Shown here one piece after another: positions 35,279-54,976 of a stretch of 56,477 nt of DNA. The stretch comes from Eubacteriales bacterium. GTDB lineage: Bacteria > Bacillota > Clostridia > Oscillospirales > SIG627. Position 1 is the stretch's first letter. Each line of letters opens with the position of its first letter. The notes under the pieces were generated by a model. The model saw nothing but the letters and a program-made list of their open reading frames with translations, had not been told where the DNA came from and ran no database searches. The stretch is taken from NCBI GenBank assembly GCA_045531285.1, contig JAZSDT010000043.1, positions 1-56,477 of the forward strand, read 5' to 3'. The position numbers and the translations under genes were made by a program.

Positions 35279-35291
35279 TATACAAAAAAAC

Positions 35292-35330
35292 GTGGCAAGA
35301 GTCAGACTCTTGCCACAGTTTTTTGCTTTT
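35292..35330. terminator. bidirectional terminator between ThuA and the asparaginase gene
   Basis: GTGGCAAGAG-tcaga-CTCTTGCCAC, with A7 upstream and TTTTTTGCTTTTT downstream. Confidence 0.8.
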
Positions 35331-35458: not shown

Positions 35459-36457
35459 TTACTGACAAACTGTTTCGCTGTTGAAATCTGTTAAAACAAA
35501 ATCCTTTACTTCGTTACCGTGAAGTCCTACCGACAGGGCGATGGATAGCTTTACGTAAAGCATTTCCAAGGTCATGGAAGCAGGAGTCAGGTCACATTCC
35601 TTTAAGGCTTCATACACCGACTCATACTGTTGTTCTCCCAAGGTACAGGGAGCAACGAACAGCGGAATACCGTGCTCTTTGCAACGGTGCGCAAGGCTCA
35701 CCAAGGAGTACTTGCCGTCGTTGGTACAAAAGGTACCCGAGTGATAGCTTCCGTGCGCGACTGCCGTTATGCCGTCAAGGTCGATTCTCGAATAGTCGAG
35801 ATTTACATAGGGCTGTATCATCAGCACCGAAGGCTCAAGGTGCTTTATCGAAAAGGGAAGGGGCTTTCTGTTTTTTGAAACACTGTCAAGCTCATCTAAA
35901 GCATAGTGTTTTGCACTGTAAAAATCCGAAGAAAAGCTTGGGGATTGCATAAGAAGCGAGGCAAGGTGCAGTATCATTTCTCCGTTTGAATTACGGTATG
36001 GCACGTATACGTTGGGGGCGATGCCCGAAAGAAGTAGCTCAACTGCCTTTGCAAAATTATCGTTGGCATTGCTGCTTGGCATATCGGGAGGAGCATCACC
36101 GGACACCAGCATTATGGGCGTGGGGGTGTCGGAACAAACCATTGCAAGAAGCGATGCTGTGTATGCCAAGGTGTCAGTACCGTGAAGGATTACGATTCCC
36201 GAATATTTACACAGCTCGATACCTCGGATGTGCTCTATAAGTCCTTCGAGCTTTTGAAACGTCATATTTTCGCTGAGTGTTTTCTGTAAAAAGCCCGAAT
36301 TTTCAAATATGCCTCCCGAAAGAGAGGCATATTTTGAGTTATTATAAAAGTTTTTTACAACGGTAGATTCCGATACGTCAGGGGCAAGCCTTCTGCAACC
36401 GTCGATGAGACGCGAGCAGATCGTGCCGCCGGTTGATATTATCAGAATTTTTTTCAT
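35459..36457 (-). CDS. L-asparaginase/glutaminase family protein (type I AnsA/GatD-core-like)
   Basis: ILIISTGGTICS (nucleophile Thr motif TGGTI) and ILHGTDTLAYT (HGTDT motif) are both intact. The ATG overlaps the gatB TGA as ATGA. Confidence 0.8.
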   Translation of the reverse strand: MKKILIISTGGTICSRLIDGCRRLAPDVSESTVVKNFYNNSKYASLSGGIFENSGFLQKTLSENMTFQKLEGLIEHIRGIELCKYSGIVILHGTDTLAYTASLLAMVCSDTPTPIMLVSGDAPPDMPSSNANDNFAKAVELLLSGIAPNVYVPYRNSNGEMILHLASLLMQSPSFSSDFYSAKHYALDELDSVSKNRKPLPFSIKHLEPSVLMIQPYVNLDYSRIDLDGITAVAHGSYHSGTFCTNDGKYSLVSLAHRCKEHGIPLFVAPCTLGEQQYESVYEALKECDLTPASMTLEMLYVKLSIALSVGLHGNEVKDFVLTDFNSETVCQ

Positions 36458-37890
36458 TGCTTGTTTACCGCATCAATAAGCATTTCACGAAGAGTCTGAG
36501 GGTCACAGTTGCCCTTAAGCTCCTTCATACACTTTCCAAAGAGTGCCATAAGAGCCTTTTCCTTACCGCCCTTGAAGTCTGCAACAGCCTTGGGGTCGGC
36601 GGCAATAGCGGCATTGATAACCTCTTCTATCTTGCCTGTGTCGTTTGATACGATAAAGCCTTCCTTCTCGGCATATTCACCGGGGTTTACACCCTCGTCA
36701 AACATAGCCGCAAGTATCTTCTTTGCATTGGGACGGCTTACCTTACCTTCGGTTACAAGGTTGATAAGCTCTCCAAGAGCTTTGCCGTCAAGCGTGAGCA
36801 TATCCACTGTCATCTGCTTCTTGTTAAGAAGATTCATACAGTCTGAAATAAGGTAGTTTGCCGCTTCCTTTGCATTTCCGCATACAGCGTAAGCCGCTTC
36901 AAAGCAATCGCAGAAGGCACGGCTTTCGGTAAGCTGGTCGGCATCGTATTCACCAAGTCCAAGCTCTTCGATATATTTAGCACGCTTGATTTCGGGGAAT
37001 TCGGGAAGTGATGCCTTTATGCTGTCATACCATTCGTCATCAATAACAACAGGCATTACGTTGGGGTCGGGGAAGTAACGGTAATCACCTGCGGTTTCCT
37101 TGTTTCTCATGGCGTAGCTCTTACCCTTTACGTCGTCCCAACGGCGCGTTTCCTGAACAAGCTCCTCTGTGCCGTTTTCAATAGCGTCGATGTGACGTGC
37201 CACTTCGTACTCAATTGCACGGGTGATGGCGGTGAGCGAGTTCATATTCTTCATTTCGGTTCTTACACCAAGCTTGTCGCTTCCCTCGGGACGAACCGAG
37301 AGGTTAACGTCGCAACGCATAGAGCCCTGCTCCATACGGCAATCCGATACCTTTGCAAAGCGAAGAAGGGAGCGAAGTCTTTCAAGATAAGCGATAACCT
37401 CTTCGGCGCTTGAAAGGTCGGGCTGGCTTACTATTTCAATAAGGGGAACGCTGGTTCTGTTGAAGTCAACAAGGGTAGTGTTTGTCCAATCGTCATGGAC
37501 AAGCTTACCTGCATCCTCCTCCATGTGTATCTGCTTGATACGCACGTTCTTTTTACCCTTTGACGTCTCTATTTCCACAGTGCCGTTTACAGCAACAGGT
37601 GCAAACCACTGTGTAGTCTGATATGCATTGGGAAGGTCGGGATAGTAGTAGCTCTTCTTGTCAAAGGTGGTTGTGCGGTTGATGTCACAGCCCAGCATCA
37701 TACCTGCTGTCATACCAAGGTCAACTACCTTCTTATTAACAATGGGAAGCATACCGGGCATACCGCAGCATGCAGGGCAAACGTGATCGTTCTGCTCTCC
37801 GCCGAACTTTGCGGAGCATGAACAGAATATTTTCGATTCGGTAGCAAGCTCAACGTGAACCTCAAGACCGATGACTGTTTCAAATTTCAT
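36454..37890 (-). CDS. gatB: aspartyl/glutamyl-tRNA(Asn/Gln) amidotransferase subunit B
   Basis: MKFETVIGLEVHVEL...CPACCGMPG...; 478 aa with a YqeY-like tail. Confidence 0.95.
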   Translation of the reverse strand: MKFETVIGLEVHVELATESKIFCSCSAKFGGEQNDHVCPACCGMPGMLPIVNKKVVDLGMTAGMMLGCDINRTTTFDKKSYYYPDLPNAYQTTQWFAPVAVNGTVEIETSKGKKNVRIKQIHMEEDAGKLVHDDWTNTTLVDFNRTSVPLIEIVSQPDLSSAEEVIAYLERLRSLLRFAKVSDCRMEQGSMRCDVNLSVRPEGSDKLGVRTEMKNMNSLTAITRAIEYEVARHIDAIENGTEELVQETRRWDDVKGKSYAMRNKETAGDYRYFPDPNVMPVVIDDEWYDSIKASLPEFPEIKRAKYIEELGLGEYDADQLTESRAFCDCFEAAYAVCGNAKEAANYLISDCMNLLNKKQMTVDMLTLDGKALGELINLVTEGKVSRPNAKKILAAMFDEGVNPGEYAEKEGFIVSNDTGKIEEVINAAIAADPKAVADFKGGKEKALMALFGKCMKELKGNCDPQTLREMLIDAVNKQ

Positions 37891-37905: not shown

Positions 37906-39069
37906 TTACATTTTTACAAGCTCTAAAAGAGCCTTTTCGGAGAATACTTTTCCTACAAGCTGAACACCCTTTGCAACCACTGCGGGAAGTCCCGTAATGC
38001 TTGCGGGGGCTGTATAAAGGTTTTCGTCGTATGAAATACCCTTTACAGCTTCTTCAGTGTATGCCTTTTTAGACGTTGCGGGCATAAGCACTGCATCAAC
38101 GCTGTCAAAAAGCGAATCAAAATAATCAACGGTAACTCGGCGTATTCTCATAGCCTTGTCATACATCTTCATATAGTTATCGTCCGAAAGAGTTTCTGAA
38201 CCAAAAAGAATAGCCTTCTTCAAAAGGTCACCGAACGCTTCGGTACGGCTGTTTGTGTAAAGCTCGTCAATAGTGGTATAATCTGCGGTTCTGTAGCCGT
38301 ATTTTACACCGTCATATTTTGAAACGTTGTTACAAAGCTCGGCTGACATAAGGATGTTCCAAGCGGTTTTTGCCGCAAGGAGTCCTGTGCCGTCCACAGT
38401 CTTTACCTCAATGCCCTTACCTTCAAGCTCCTTGACAAACGCATCTACGTCTGCTTTAACTTCGGCATCAACGCTGTCATCAAATGCAGTTACCACAGCC
38501 ACGCTCTTTATTTCGGATTCTTCTGCTATCATATCCTCGGGAAGACTTGTGCCGTCCTTTGCATCGTAGCCCGAAATAACGTCAAGCACTTCAAGGCAAG
38601 ACTCGGCATCCTTTGCCATAACTCCAACGCAATCGCCGGAGCAAGCAACGGGAACGATACCGTATCTTGATACAGTTCCGTAGGTGGGCTTTACGAAAAC
38701 AAGCCCGTTTGTAGCAGCGGCACGGCGAGGTGCTCCGTTAGCATCCAGCTGAATTGCAGCTTTTACGTTTTCATTTTTGAGTATTTCGGCTGACGCAAGT
38801 GAAAGGTTGCCCTTTTCATCCTTTACGGCACCGAAATAAGAGGTTTCGCCCATAACGTCGATTGCGAACTCTCCCACGTTTGCCTTGCCTGCAATTTCAT
38901 ATCCTGCAGACGCCAGCTTTTCAACAACTGTTGCTTCGAACAGACTCTTGTAGCCCTCAAGCATTTTTGAGCCTGCGGTTGTGGGCATATCCTTGGTGAG
39001 AATCATATCGTCAAGTACTACCGCCTTATCGGTCTTGACAGTGTTTTTTGTTATATACATTGACGACAC
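37906..39069 (-). CDS. gatA: GatA-like amidase-signature protein, truncated and apparently lacking the Ser nucleophile
   Basis: 387 aa versus about 485 for canonical GatA. TTAGSKMLEG and KPTYGTVSRYG are conserved. GGSSGG...GGSIR is replaced by GNLSLAS...NGAPR. The gene sits between gatC and gatB. Confidence 0.8.
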   Translation of the reverse strand: MSSMYITKNTVKTDKAVVLDDMILTKDMPTTAGSKMLEGYKSLFEATVVEKLASAGYEIAGKANVGEFAIDVMGETSYFGAVKDEKGNLSLASAEILKNENVKAAIQLDANGAPRRAAATNGLVFVKPTYGTVSRYGIVPVACSGDCVGVMAKDAESCLEVLDVISGYDAKDGTSLPEDMIAEESEIKSVAVVTAFDDSVDAEVKADVDAFVKELEGKGIEVKTVDGTGLLAAKTAWNILMSAELCNNVSKYDGVKYGYRTADYTTIDELYTNSRTEAFGDLLKKAILFGSETLSDDNYMKMYDKAMRIRRVTVDYFDSLFDSVDAVLMPATSKKAYTEEAVKGISYDENLYTAPASITGLPAVVAKGVQLVGKVFSEKALLELVKM

Positions 39070-39073
39070 CTCC

Positions 39074-39355
39074 TTATTCTACAAGACGGGGAACCTGCCA
39101 GTAACCGTCGTTTGTTTCGGGTGCTGACTGCTGAAGCTCGTCTCTTGTGAAATTCTTTATTTCCTTGTCCTCACGCACTACCGTCAAAACGGGCATTACG
39201 TGAACCATTCTTTCCACGTCCTCGGTGTTTATTTCCGAGAGTGCTTCGGTTTCCTTTTCCTGCTTTGCCCAAAACTCAAGGAACTCCGTTTCTTGCTCCT
39301 CGGTAAGAGAAAGCTGGTTAAGCTTTTCAAGTCTTTTGAGTATCTTTATATCCAT
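39074..39355 (-). CDS. gatC: aspartyl/glutamyl-tRNA amidotransferase subunit C
   Basis: 93 aa. LSLTEEQ...VHVMP...REDK pattern of GatC, at the operon position upstream of gatA. Confidence 0.85.
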   Translation of the reverse strand: MDIKILKRLEKLNQLSLTEEQETEFLEFWAKQEKETEALSEINTEDVERMVHVMPVLTVVREDKEIKNFTRDELQQSAPETNDGYWQVPRLVE

Positions 39356-39385: not shown

Positions 39386-41116
39386 TCAGTCTCTGACCTT
39401 GATGTGTACTTCTCTGAGCTGCTGCTCTGTAACCTCACCGGGTGCTCCCATCATAAGATCCTGCGCATTTCCGTTCAAGGGGAACGCAATAACGTCACGG
39501 ATGGTCTCTTCTTCTGCGATGAGCATTATCATTCTGTCAACACCGGGTGCCATACCTGCGTGAGGAGGAGCACCGTAGGAGAATGCTGTGTAGAGAGCGC
39601 CGAACTTAGCCTTAACGTCCTCTTCACCGTATCCTGCGATTTCAAACGCCTTTCTCATTATTTCGGGGTTGTGGTTTCTTACAGCACCAGAGGAAAGCTC
39701 TACGCCGTTACATACGATGTCGTACTGATAAGCGAATATTTCAAGGGGATCCTTGTTAAGAAGAGCATCCATACCGCCCTGAGGCATTGAGAAGGGGTTG
39801 TGTGTAAAGTCTATCTTATTTGTTTCTGTGTTGAGCTCGTACATGGGGAAGTCAACGATAAAGCAGAACTCAAACTTATCCTTGTTTATAACGTCAAGCT
39901 CCTGACCGAGCCACGTTCTTATTTCGCCTGCTTCCTTGTTTACAACGTTGATAGCGTCGCAAATGAAGAATACCGTTTCGCCTTCCTTGATGCCTACTCT
40001 TGCAGTAAGGTCAGCCTTCTGCTCTTCGGAAAGGAACTTGGCAATGGGACCCTTGTACTCGTTGCCGTTGAGAGTAAGATAGCCAAGACCCTTCATACCG
40101 ATGCTCATAGCAAACTTAAGAGATTCTTCAAAGAATTTCTTTGACTTACCCGAACAGTCTGCAACAATACCTCTTACAGGTTTGCCCTTGAAAAGAGGGA
40201 AGTCAACGTTTGCAAAGAAGTCTGTCAGATCCTCAATGATGAGGGGGTTTCTCAGGTCAGGCTTGTCTGTACCGTACTTGAGCATTGATTCAGCGAAGGT
40301 AATTCTGCGGAAGGGAGGCTTTGAAACCTCCTTGTTGCTGAATTCCTTGAAGGTGTTGTATACAACTGTTTCAGCTACTCCAAATACGTCCTCCTGTGTT
40401 GCAAAGGACATTTCAAAGTCAAGCTGATAGAATTCTCCGGGTGAACGGTCCTGACGTGCATCCTCGTCTCTGAAGCAAGGAGCTATCTGGAAATAACGGT
40501 CAAAGCCCGATGCCATAAGAAGCTGCTTGAACTGCTGAGGAGCCTGAGGAAGAGCATAGAATTTGCCCTTGTGCTTACGGCTGGGAACAAGGTAGTCTCT
40601 TGCACCCTCGGGAGAAGAAGCTGTAAGTATGGGAGTCTGTATTTCAAGGAATCCCAGAGCTTCCATCTGTGAACGGAGATAGCTGAGTATCTTTGAACGA
40701 AGCACGATATTGTCGTGAATCTTTCTGTTTCTAAGGTCGAGGTAGCGATATTTAAGTCTTACTTCCTCTCTTGTCTGTACGGAAGAATCGATTTCAAAGG
40801 GAAGTCCCAACTGACAGGGACCAAGCACCTCAATTTTGTCTGCCTTAACTTCAACCGTACCTGTTGCAAGCTTGGGGTTGACTGTCTCGGCATCACGCTC
40901 GGTAACAGTACCCTCTACAAGTACAACGGTCTCCTTTGATATGCCTGCAAGCATCTTATCGTCTGAAAATACTATCTGTGTAATTCCGTAATGGTCACGA
41001 AGGTCTACGAAAAGTACTCCTCCATGGTCTCTTACTGTTTCGATCCAACCGGTGAGAGTCACCTTCTGACCGATATGTTCGTTGTTCAATTCGTTACAGT
41101 TATGTGTTCTTAACAT
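39386..41116 (-). CDS. aspS: aspartate--tRNA ligase (bacterial type; possibly non-discriminating)
   Basis: The start was moved to ATG 41116; the track's TTG 41131 is itself the GGAGG RBS. LRTHNCNEL...GWIETVRDHGGVLFVDLRDHYG, class II motifs and the GAPPHAG motif are present. Confidence 0.95.
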   Translation of the reverse strand: MLRTHNCNELNNEHIGQKVTLTGWIETVRDHGGVLFVDLRDHYGITQIVFSDDKMLAGISKETVVLVEGTVTERDAETVNPKLATGTVEVKADKIEVLGPCQLGLPFEIDSSVQTREEVRLKYRYLDLRNRKIHDNIVLRSKILSYLRSQMEALGFLEIQTPILTASSPEGARDYLVPSRKHKGKFYALPQAPQQFKQLLMASGFDRYFQIAPCFRDEDARQDRSPGEFYQLDFEMSFATQEDVFGVAETVVYNTFKEFSNKEVSKPPFRRITFAESMLKYGTDKPDLRNPLIIEDLTDFFANVDFPLFKGKPVRGIVADCSGKSKKFFEESLKFAMSIGMKGLGYLTLNGNEYKGPIAKFLSEEQKADLTARVGIKEGETVFFICDAINVVNKEAGEIRTWLGQELDVINKDKFEFCFIVDFPMYELNTETNKIDFTHNPFSMPQGGMDALLNKDPLEIFAYQYDIVCNGVELSSGAVRNHNPEIMRKAFEIAGYGEEDVKAKFGALYTAFSYGAPPHAGMAPGVDRMIMLIAEEETIRDVIAFPLNGNAQDLMMGAPGEVTEQQLREVHIKVRD

Positions 41117-41139
41117 TGGTTTTTCCTCCAATATATTAT

Positions 41140-41400
41140 TTACTTTAAAAATTAAAAATGCCCTTCGCCCCCAAATATGGGACGAAAGGCAACTTCCGCG
41201 ATACCACCCAAATTGACTTTGAAAACAAAGTCCTCTCTTGTCACATTCACGCAGTGTAACGTGCGGTTCTAATCACCCTGTGGGCTTTCTTCCGCCGGCT
41301 CCGAAGCGTTTTTCCCATAAGACTTGCTGCCGTTCTCACACCTGCAACGACTCTCTTTGAGCAGTAACTTACGGTACTCTCTTCATCACAACCATTTTGA
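41140..41400 (-). promoter_or_regulatory. T-box riboswitch leader of the aspS-gatCAB operon
   Basis: On the minus strand I read a GA/K-turn (GUGAUGAAG), AGAGAGUA, an AG bulge (AAAGAGAG) and a distal loop (GCAGGUGUGAG). The T-box sequence AAUUUGGGUGGUAUCGCGG lies at plus 41196-41214. A terminator hairpin at 41160-41190 is followed by a U-run. Confidence 0.85.
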
Positions 41401-41407
41401 CAGCGTA

Positions 41408-41436
41408 ATTTTATCACAAATTGTTTTCTCTGTCAA
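41408..41436 (-). promoter_or_regulatory. sigma-A promoter for the T-box/aspS operon
   Basis: Minus strand: TTGACA (41431-41436), 17-nt spacer, TGaTAAAAT extended -10 (41408-41413). Confidence 0.7.
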
Positions 41437-41459: not shown

Positions 41460-42683
41460 TTATTTACAGAAGTTTATTACTTTGCCGCTTAGCTCGTCAT
41501 CCGACATTTTTACAATATCGTCGGCTATCAACCTGATTCCCATGTCGTCGGCACGGGCCTTCAGAATTTTTCCAAATCCCGCACTGACGTCGAGGGCTGA
41601 TGCTACAAGAAGCTTTTTGGCGTACTTGCCTCCGAAGCGTTGCGCTACGGTATTCAGTTTGTACAGCTCGTCTATGTCAACGTAGCCGTTTTTACAGGAA
41701 ACGAAAACGGGACACATACCGCGCATCATCATTACGTCTATTTCGTTTTCAGTGTCGGTTCCTGTTTTTTTGCCGTCCCAATCAATGCACACTCCTGTCA
41801 ACACGTCGTTAAAAACGGGAGTGCCGTCTTTTTCTGCGGCTCTTACGGCTGTGGCATATATTTTCATCTCAAGCGCCTGACCTGCCTTGGTAAGACATCT
41901 TTTTACGTTGGCGTTTTTGTATCTCAGCTTAAATTTTGAGCCGTTGAATTCCCAGCTCTTTATAAGCCCTTGATTCAAGAGCATATTCATGGTTTCATCA
42001 TCAAAGCTCTGCTTTGTGATAAGTCTTTCTGTGTAGGTAGTCAACAGATGAACGTTTGCGTTTGATTCAAGGCTGTTGTTTTCAGTGGATTTGTCAGCCG
42101 CCTCGAATACCGTAACAAGATTGTTCCAGCCCTTGACGTCTCTCTTGCAGACGTTCCATATTTTGTCTACGTCTTCAAAAAGCTCACGGCTGTTATCCCA
42201 TCTGCGTGTGGCACCCTCATCCCAAATCACTCTGCCACCGTATACAGCTACGTTTTCCTCTACGCTAAGGTTGGGAAAGGGAGAAAAATCGGGTTTGCCG
42301 TTATTGTCGCAGTCATAGACCTTATTTGAATTTATATTAAATCTTACAAGCTCGATGCTTTTTTCGGGGAACCTTTCAAAGATTATACCTGCTCCCACAA
42401 GATAAAGCTCATCACCGCCCGTAAGGTCAAATACACAGTTTTCGTAGCTGTTTACAATATTTCCAAAAAGCTCAACGATACCGTCCAGGTTGTTGCGGCT
42501 CAGGGCTTGTATAATAAATTGAGTTTTTTGGCCTCGGTTTGTCAGGATCTGCTTGTAATTTTCTACAAACCTCTCCATTTGTTTTCTGTCTTTGCCTACG
42601 AAAATCACTCTTTCGGGTGTTTTACAAAGACAGGCACAGATATTTTCAGTTGCCGTTTTATCGAAAAATTCTATATACGTCAT
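41460..42683 (-). CDS. Card1/Can2-like protein: CARF-like N-domain plus DUF1887 PD-(D/E)xK nuclease-like C-domain
   Basis: The N-terminal Rossmann-like region carries FDLTGGDE. The C-terminus carries ALEMKIY..., NEIDVMMMRGMCPVFVSCKNG and ELYKLNTVAQRFGGKYAKKLLVAS, resembling the DUF1887 E...(I/L)D...ECK...GG pattern. Recognition is by eye only. Confidence 0.55.
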   Translation of the reverse strand: MTYIEFFDKTATENICACLCKTPERVIFVGKDRKQMERFVENYKQILTNRGQKTQFIIQALSRNNLDGIVELFGNIVNSYENCVFDLTGGDELYLVGAGIIFERFPEKSIELVRFNINSNKVYDCDNNGKPDFSPFPNLSVEENVAVYGGRVIWDEGATRRWDNSRELFEDVDKIWNVCKRDVKGWNNLVTVFEAADKSTENNSLESNANVHLLTTYTERLITKQSFDDETMNMLLNQGLIKSWEFNGSKFKLRYKNANVKRCLTKAGQALEMKIYATAVRAAEKDGTPVFNDVLTGVCIDWDGKKTGTDTENEIDVMMMRGMCPVFVSCKNGYVDIDELYKLNTVAQRFGGKYAKKLLVASALDVSAGFGKILKARADDMGIRLIADDIVKMSDDELSGKVINFCK

Positions 42684-54773: not shown

Positions 54774-54802
54774 TTGACAAAACCTTTTTTATAGTGTATA
54801 AT
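54774..54802 (+). promoter_or_regulatory. sigma-A promoter of rplJL
   Basis: TTGACA (54774-54779), 17-nt spacer, TATAAT (54797-54802). Both hexamers match the consensus. Confidence 0.8.
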
Positions 54803-54976
54803 CCACCTGTTGACCTAAGACAGTAGGTGACGCGAAAGCGTCGTAATATTCGCCTACCGAGGAAAACCTTGAATTTTAAAATCTGTACTTATGTATATTT
54901 TTGCGAATTTTCGGTTCTTTCATCGGTTGGTGAAGGAACCTTTTTTATTTCAAATTTACCCGGAGGTGAAACACGA
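54803..54976 (+). promoter_or_regulatory. ribosomal protein L10 leader with attenuator hairpin
   Basis: A long 5' UTR upstream of rplJ. Hairpin GGTTCTTTCA/TGAAGGAACC (54913-54940) is followed by TTTTTT, consistent with the Firmicute L10-leader attenuation mechanism. Confidence 0.65.

Follow-up and report, generated by a model that had tools for sequence, protein, structure and literature searches.

An asparaginase-fold gene attached to Clostridial aspS-gatC-gatA-gatB operons with a degenerate GatA: a candidate accessory amide hydrolase for Asn-tRNA(Asn) formation

This study was concerned with a gene for a protein of the asparaginase fold, here called ans' (protein Ans'), in contig JAZSDT010000043.1 of assembly GCA_045531285.1 from an Eubacteriales bacterium (SIG627). 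The whole stretch of 56,477 nucleotides is referred to as the window. The gene closes an operon for the synthesis of Asn-tRNA(Asn) through amidation of Asp-tRNA(Asn), via a presumed non-discriminating aspartyl-tRNA synthetase (AspRS) and the amidotransferase subunit GatB. The same operon encodes a GatA-like protein, here called GatA', which lacks the catalytic triad of the GatA amidase. The unit is ordered promoter, T-box (AAC), aspS, gatC, gatA', gatB, ans' and terminator, as follows:

41408..41436, minus strand: sigma-70-type promoter of the operon (TTGACA, 17 nt, TG-TAAAAT), 11/12 matches, extended -10
41175..41398, minus strand: T-box leader with the Asn specifier AAC (RF00230, 117.7 bits against a gathering score of 93)
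41159..41191, minus strand: T-box terminator hairpin, a 13-bp stem and T-run, overlapping the 3' end of the T-box match
39386..41131, minus strand: aspS, bacterial-type AspRS with a GAD domain (NF001750, 787.6 bits)
39074..39355, minus strand: gatC (TIGR00135, 64.2 bits; cut-off 47.1)
37906..39069, minus strand: gatA', a shortened pseudo-amidase keeping the GatA fold (TIGR00132, 268 bits; cut-off 481)
36454..37890, minus strand: gatB, the canonical kinase/transamidase subunit (NF004012, 594.6 bits; cut-off 338)
36454..36457, minus strand: ATGA overlap of the gatB stop and the ans' start (context caATGAaa; gatB ends ...AAC AAG CAA TGA)
35459..36457, minus strand: ans', asparaginase-fold open reading frame of 332 residues with an ATG start, the last gene of the operon
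35291..35317, minus strand: intrinsic terminator closing the operon, a bidirectional hairpin with a 12-bp stem followed by TTTTTTTG

The promoter (41436-41408) is the best site in the region and lies directly 5' of the T-box. The leader scores above the gathering score of its family, carries an Asn codon in its specifier loop (GAA-A-AAC-G) and ends in a terminator, and the T-box control of the operon proposed in the initial annotation was thus borne out. The AspRS is presumed to be non-discriminating from the Asn T-box. Both GatB and GatC reach the cut-offs of the canonical GatCAB models, and the ratio of nonsynonymous to synonymous substitution rates (dN/dS) of gatB is 0.01-0.04. The 332-residue open reading frame, whose ATG overlaps the gatB TGA, lies exactly where it was first placed, and the ATGA overlap is translational coupling of the two genes. 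The 4-base overlap is also present in the related loci L001 and L002, and L007-L009 have abutting gatB and ans' matches at the position seen in the window. No terminator-like site was found on the minus strand between the T-box terminator (41191-41159) and the closing hairpin (35317-35291), in agreement with the earlier statement that the gatB-ans' junction is free of terminators and that the next one lies downstream. The 56-kb window contains no asnS, asnA or asnB.

The catalytic triad of GatA is Ser-cisSer-Lys, with Ser178 as the nucleophile (PMC2330236). GatA' does not have this triad, and as listed above it falls below the TIGR00132 cut-off. It has 387 residues, is about 100 residues shorter than GatA, and its match begins at about position 60 of the TIGR00132 profile. 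In an alignment to Aquifex GatA, 'PGGSSGGS...GSDTGGSIRQPA' corresponds to 'KGNLSLAS...QLDANGAPRRAA' in the window, so that the loop 'GGSSGGS' has become 'GNLSLAS' and 'DTGGSIR' has become 'DANGAPR'. The cis-Ser is replaced by Leu and the nucleophile Ser by Ala. The suspected loss of the GatA nucleophile is therefore confirmed in the window, and the loss of the cis-Ser extends to its relatives: in 49 of 49 distinct GatA' homologues encoded beside ans'-like genes this position is L, I, Y or F. In these homologues the nucleophile position is A, S, Y, T or F and the Lys position K, R, H, A, G or N. Judged from the alignment, this drift is a mark of relaxed constraint on catalysis. Since the Ser-cisSer residues are lost, the complex cannot release ammonia from glutamine in the usual way. 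The gatA' gene is under purifying selection (dN/dS about 0.10), and the AlphaFold2 model of GatA' has a mean predicted local distance difference test (pLDDT) score of 85.6, with GatA of GatCAB as the best fold matches in the PDB (TMq 0.86). With its Ser-cisSer residues gone, GatA' is retained only as a scaffold. In the model, residues 247-273 (window about 38260-38340), around 'SKYDGVKYGYRTADYTTIDELY', have a pLDDT below 50 and yet are highly conserved; this segment may be ordered only within the complex. Of the GatA' relatives in public records most are nameless, and the few named ones appear as 'hypothetical protein' instead of GatA, so standard annotation would report no GatA in this operon.

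Ans' matches the asparaginase N-terminal domain of Pfam (PF00710) over residues 3-156 with 92.7 bits (E = 2.8e-26), and no match to the Pfam C-terminal domain model PF17763 was found in it. It falls below the cut-off of every named NCBIfam family, and only its N-terminal half matches. For example, the type I asparaginase model TIGR00519 gives 75.2 bits against a cut-off of 260.5 and covers only residues 1-152, the GatD models NF003217 and TIGR02153 give 80.6 bits (cut-off 310) and 71.9 bits (cut-off 324), and the type II asparaginase model gives 26.8 bits (cut-off 314.3). The AlphaFold2 model of Ans' (30 homologues, pLDDT 93.3) has the two-domain asparaginase fold. In a Foldseek comparison over its full length, archaeal type I asparaginases reached template modelling (TM) scores of 0.77-0.78 and GatD scores of 0.73-0.75. 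The dN/dS of ans' is 0.085-0.13 against three close relatives, which indicates a real gene under purifying selection. The family comprises 1424 clusters at 90% identity with E <= 0.001, and an exhaustive HMMER search with the family profile identified 825 representatives at E <= 1e-30. The named sources are all uncultured gut or rumen Clostridia (Oscillospiraceae, Acutalibacteraceae, Ruminococcus and some Lachnospiraceae), and the relatives are publicly annotated 'asparaginase'.

The active site was compared in an alignment of 80 sequences, made up of 77 family members and three Pseudomonas outliers. The motifs STGGTICS (residues 8-15) and HGTDTLAY (92-99) are both present in the window protein, and T12, S62 and H92-G-T94-D95-T96 are invariant in 80/80 sequences at 30-85% identity. 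Further invariant residues are G10-G11, N134, Y278 and K303. The pair S62-E63 is kept in the window, where the substrate-loop motif 'SE[ND]M' is found. In addition, the family has motifs of its own, 'SN[AG]xxNF' and 'YHSGT', and two new family-specific residues near the site, N130 and H239, are invariant or nearly so. These last two suggest a site that has been rewired and has not decayed. The three Pseudomonas asparaginases (L083-L085), the most distant matches of the genome scan at 27-28% identity, have the canonical catalytic Lys with 'SDA..NL' and 'YGSGT', have no aspS or gat neighbours, and serve as an internal contrast for the substitutions of the family.

The genomic context of ans' was scanned in one genome per species, with the flanks of each ans' gene searched for the four upstream proteins of the window. 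At least one gene of an aspS-gatC-gatA'-gatB cluster adjoins ans' at 60 of the 78 related Clostridial loci. Fourteen of the 78 were too short to judge, so that 60 of 64 judgeable loci are linked, and the four unlinked ones each have 6 kb or more of clean flank to either side. Thus, the neighbourhood of an asparaginase-like gene and a gatB-type operon, to which attention had been drawn from a single locus, recurs across Clostridia. It does so in four arrangements, and the linkage therefore survives rearrangement:

Arrangement a, ans' 3' of gatB: 19 loci and the window
Arrangement b, ans' 5' of aspS on the same strand: 23 loci
Arrangement c, divergent: 13 loci
Arrangement d, convergent: 5 loci

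Two loci read ans'-gatC-gatA'(-gatB), and sub-types of Ans', judged from motifs, tend to track different arrangements. Unlinked ans' genes do occur, as in P0092 (137 member sequences), L028, L050, L063 and L075. A metagenome scan seeded with GatA' gave a clean split: GatA'-type loci have 44-64% identity to the window GatA' and are all degenerate, and 50 canonical GatA loci have at most 36% identity to it with GGSSGGS and DTGGSIR intact. No ans' was found near canonical GatA in any of these 50 loci, which as controls come from unrelated taxa. Ans' is a dedicated family, with genes almost only beside dead-GatA operons. As a separate observation, a tRNA-Asn(GTT) gene with the pair U1-A72 lies within about 200 bp or less of ans' or gatB at L025:4123-4198, L029:6857-6932, L037:778-853 and L045:7714-7789, which are four of the 15 tRNA genes across the 60 related loci. 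Since U1-A72 is common in bacterial tRNA(Asn), these neighbours are only consistent with the pathway and are not diagnostic of it. The pair is the bacterial amidotransferase identity pair (PMC1635274).

Gut and rumen Clostridia widely carry this operon type, with an Asn T-box and a GatA that cannot be a glutaminase, which raises the question of where the ammonia for Asn-tRNA(Asn) comes from. As a dedicated asparaginase-fold family attached to dead-GatA operons, Ans' is the obvious candidate for the source. From the analysis as a whole, the reading that we prefer, with moderate confidence, is that Ans' would be an amide hydrolase, dedicated yet accessory, which supplies ammonia to an amidotransferase whose glutaminase is dead and which was recruited, as a bacterial functional analogue of archaeal GatD, independently of it. 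It is highly probable that Ans' has some part in this pathway. In the preferred reading, GatA' would stay in the complex as a scaffold without glutaminase chemistry, Ans' would hydrolyse an amide donor, Gln or Asn, and the ammonia would pass to GatB for the amidation of Asp-tRNA(Asn). With Asn as the donor, Ans' would supply Asp as well. Free ammonia is plentiful in gut and rumen, and GatCA'B can probably also run on it in such ammonia-rich habitats. If Ans' is the donor enzyme, the asparaginase fold has been recruited twice independently for aminoacyl-tRNA amidation, and an asparaginase-type site can work without the canonical Lys. The system is hidden by current annotation, in which GatA' is a 'hypothetical protein' and Ans' an 'asparaginase'.

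Several results weigh against the donor role. First, Ans' has other residues at two of the five canonical catalytic positions. Of the 77 family members, 73 have Gln171 where E. coli AnsB has its catalytic Lys, K162. Q171 is aligned to the Lys in two of three profile alignments to solved structures and L169 in the third, and MAFFT with five reference enzymes also places the Lys column at L169, two residues before Q171. The register of this column is thus uncertain by about two residues, and no conserved K or R was found in the segment under either register. The position of the loop Tyr (Y25 in E. coli AnsB) is R22 in the window, with Arg in 45 of the 80 aligned sequences and N, K, T, L or Q in the others, and no conserved Tyr was found in the flexible loop of this alignment. 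The description of the gene as an apparently intact asparaginase therefore holds for the two motifs but not for the full catalytic set, and the hydrolytic competence of Ans' is only putative.

Secondly, the linkage is one-sided. Eight GatA' operons were looked up on long contigs, and in seven of them ans' was absent within 8-9 kb. At L166-L171 an asparaginase gene was not found within 9 kb on either side, at L172 none was found in 9 kb downstream, the upstream side being cut by the contig end, and at L173 ans' is present. For example, L169 and L173 are syntenic, with 87% and 79.5% nucleotide identity in the flanks, and differ exactly in the ans' segment. Four of the operons without ans' nearby (L166-L169) still have the T-box, and their GatA' is degenerate too. 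Among metagenome GatA' operons with usable flanks, ans' was not found at L086, L088, L098, L104 and L107 and is present at L099 and L100. Since most GatA' operons with long flanks have no adjacent ans', GatCA'B seems able to exist without an adjacent partner, and the dependence of Ans' on the operon type is far stronger than the reverse. Of the co-conservation with a degenerate GatA that was expected, the direction from ans' to dead GatA stands (49/49, as above), but that from dead GatA to ans' is weak. For these reasons Ans' is taken here as an accessory and not an obligatory partner, and a model in which it is an obligatory subunit is weakened.

The locus L086 is of separate interest. At L086:4369-10645, on a high-GC metagenome contig, a canonical gatA (TIGR00132, 567 bits, with GGSSGGS and DTGGSIR intact) and gatB are directly followed by a dead-type gatC-gatA'-gatB', and no aspS or ans' was found nearby. 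As this contig carries both sets, the dead-GatA amidotransferase can coexist with a canonical one.

Third, no signal of co-evolution was found. No fusion of Ans' to GatA, GatB, GatC or AspS was found among the best 150 of the 825 representatives. In a mirror-tree comparison of distance matrices across 43 loci, aspS, gatC, gatA' and gatB inter-correlate at r = 0.71-0.93, and ans' correlates with these four at r = 0.21-0.31, a low value to which saturation may contribute (mean ans' distance 1.02). The partial correlations of ans' with aspS controlled are about 0. Neither the fusion search nor the mirror-tree comparison supports Ans' as a tightly co-evolving core subunit. Fusions and extensions of other kinds were seen: P0163 (684 aa) is a family member fused to a C-terminal PfkB-type kinase, and in P0207 (577 aa) and P0221 (486 aa) the N-terminus is extended by long repetitive stretches that match no Pfam family significantly.

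Lastly, ans' is not always under the T-box. The AAC specifier was found in the window, in seven further related loci and in L014, an abundant rumen Ruminococcus sp. (P0095, 57 members) in which, at L014:1289-4442, a T-box(AAC) drives aspS and then ans'. In arrangements b and d, every T-box that was found sits between ans' and aspS, so that ans' is outside the T-box transcript and is not co-induced, and universal T-box co-regulation of ans' is rejected for these two arrangements. The gene is outside the T-box transcript in about half of the linked loci, and no T-box above threshold was found in four of the divergent (c) loci tested. Co-induction by uncharged tRNA(Asn) thus stands for the window arrangement and L014 and does not extend to the whole family. 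A second T-box at L036 belongs to an unrelated gene, judged from its translation to be isopropylmalate-synthase-like. In addition, the initial annotation had argued that a co-induced asparaginase would be counterproductive unless it served the amidotransferase, and this argument fails if the organism has no asparaginyl-tRNA synthetase (AsnRS). Its proposal that the asparaginase is the amide-donor hydrolase of the amidotransferase is partly supported, with the dead GatA and the linkage in its favour and the missing Lys and the weak reverse linkage against it.

A stronger form of the donor role, which we regard as possible but doubtful, is a third amidotransferase architecture, used by gut and rumen Clostridia, in which Ans', with a rewired site of Thr/Thr/Asp and Gln for Lys, would dock on GatC-GatA'-GatB and feed the old GatA-GatB tunnel, as a convergent bacterial counterpart of GatD for Asn-tRNA(Asn).

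Two other explanations have some weight. In the first, which we consider unlikely, Ans' is a free-standing enzyme of Asn salvage that turns free Asn into Asp for a non-discriminating AspRS in organisms without AsnRS. Ammonia would then be a by-product, and GatA' as such would be linked to Ans' neither physically nor functionally. This would fit the position of ans', which often borders the operon on its aspS side (arrangements b and c), and also L014, where no gatC, gatA' or gatB was found in the 8 kb downstream of the aspS-ans' unit. Loose linkage, the lack of a co-evolution signal and the lack of fusions all fit a soluble enzyme, and Ans' has the size and fold of a type I asparaginase. Against it, the family is without the catalytic Lys and Tyr of working asparaginases. 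Salvage is also at odds with a family that lies beside dead-GatA operons and beside none of the 50 canonical GatA loci, with the reservation on taxa given above.

In the second, to which we give a low probability, GatCA'B uses free ammonia, and Ans' is a second pseudoenzyme, with a conserved pocket for Asn, Asp or Gln, that would regulate or chaperone the AspRS/amidotransferase pathway, perhaps by sensing feedback. The loss of two of five catalytic residues (Lys to Gln171, and the Tyr position to Arg or others) speaks for this, and the kept residues T12, S62, E63, T94 and D95 double as ligand-binding residues. Most dead-GatA operons are without a nearby ans', so the amidotransferase must work alone there, and transamidation by a tRNA-dependent amidotransferase does run on free ammonium (NH4Cl, 20 mM in vitro) with the glutaminase bypassed (PMC4027206). 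Against a binding role stands the conservation pattern, in which the nucleophile Thr and the whole HGTDT are invariant in 80/80 sequences, whereas the catalytic positions of GatA' drift freely; the new invariant residues H239 and N130 likewise suggest a rewired and not a decayed site. If Ans' is not the donor, the result would be an ammonia-dependent amidotransferase with two pseudoenzymes attached, which is equally unexpected. A housekeeping cytoplasmic asparaginase (AnsA) placed after gatB by chance is very improbable: the public name 'asparaginase' of the relatives and the type I asparaginases as closest folds speak for it, but the type I model gives only 75 of the required 260.5 bits and covers the N-terminal half alone, 60 of the 64 judgeable loci show the linkage, in four arrangements, the start of ans' is translationally coupled to gatB, and the catalytic Lys is missing.

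Other features of the window and the related loci were recorded. The gene 5' of the operon promoter (41460-42683, minus strand) encodes a protein of 407 residues with a weak Card1-like endonuclease domain (28.9 bits), and two relatives, L001 and L002, carry this gene and the neighbouring Mem_trans gene at the corresponding position. The plus strand holds, at 54796-54954, a ribosomal protein L10 leader (RF00557, 71.5 bits) that is unrelated to the finding. Among the related loci, a glycine riboswitch directly follows gatB and precedes the gene of a Na/Ala symporter (L168:11818-11916), and a Gut-1 sRNA lies beside a tRNA-Gln gene (L040:2583-2657).

A literature search found neither an account of a dead GatA nor one of an asparaginase-like amidotransferase partner in bacteria. 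The operon was set beside four known systems. The yeast mitochondrial GatFAB resembles it in the non-canonical subunit composition of a GatAB-type amidotransferase, and it is also an example of transamidation on free ammonium once the glutaminase is bypassed (PMC4027206), but GatFAB keeps an active GatA, and its variant subunit is a replacement of GatC. A T-box(Asn)-controlled aspS-gatCAB operon of Clostridium acetobutylicum was reportedly described by Saad et al. in 2012. That operon, cited in PMC4206432, is like that of the window a T-box-regulated Clostridial unit for tRNA-dependent Asn synthesis, with a bacterial-type AspRS, GatC and GatB. In the window GatA is about 100 residues shorter and without Ser-cisSer, and an asparaginase-like gene is added.

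The type I asparaginases of Pyrococcus horikoshii, Thermococcus sibiricus and E. coli (AnsA) share with Ans' the two-domain fold, a length of about 330 residues and the motifs TGGT and HGTDT. Ans' differs from them in an identity of about 23%, in the replacement of Lys162 by Gln, in a Tyr25 position that is not conserved and in a genomic context dedicated to the aspS-gatCA'B operon. By its fold and two motifs Ans' belongs to the asparaginase superfamily, but it misses the cut-offs of type I, type II and GatD and has replaced two of the catalytic residues.

Two tRNA-dependent amidotransferases are generally recognised, GatCAB with an amidase glutaminase and GatDE, a Glu-tRNA(Gln) amidotransferase, with an asparaginase-type glutaminase, and the latter is described as exclusive to archaea (PMC2811023, PMC2330236 for the two enzymes; PMC2811023 for the distribution). 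GatD is an asparaginase homologue that feeds ammonia to GatE and uses a Thr-Lys-Asp triad (PMC2330236). Both GatD and Ans' have the asparaginase fold and are encoded with a kinase/transamidase of the GatB/GatE type in the absence of an active GatA amidase; the TGGT Thr nucleophile, the Thr-Asp pair of HGTDT and the 'SE[ND]M' motif of the substrate loop are common to both; and the role proposed for Ans', the release of ammonia from Gln or Asn, would be the same. GatD forms a complex with the kinase subunit, and its glutaminase is activated by the mischarged tRNA; for a like association of Ans' the mirror-tree comparison gave no support. There are further differences. GatD has 435-438 residues and Ans' 332, Ans' is without the N-terminal domain of about 90 residues, and the triad Lys of GatD is Gln in Ans'. 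Ans' partners a bacterial GatB with GatC and a retained dead GatA and not GatE, the window GatB scoring 164 against the GatE model (cut-off 456). In addition, the pathway of Ans' is that of Asn (T-box AAC) and not Gln, and its gene linkage is facultative. A special kinship of Ans' with GatD was rejected both on profile scores (97.6 bits for GatD and 98.9 bits for archaeal asparaginase) and on fold (TM 0.73-0.75 for GatD and 0.77-0.78 for asparaginases). The initial annotation had noted the AnsA size and the missing N-terminal domain of GatD, and this proved correct, as the profile alignment starts at GatD residue 94. Since Ans' has the size of AnsA, is without the N-terminal domain of GatD and is no closer to GatD than to asparaginases, any recruitment of Ans' to the amidotransferase would have been independent of GatD.

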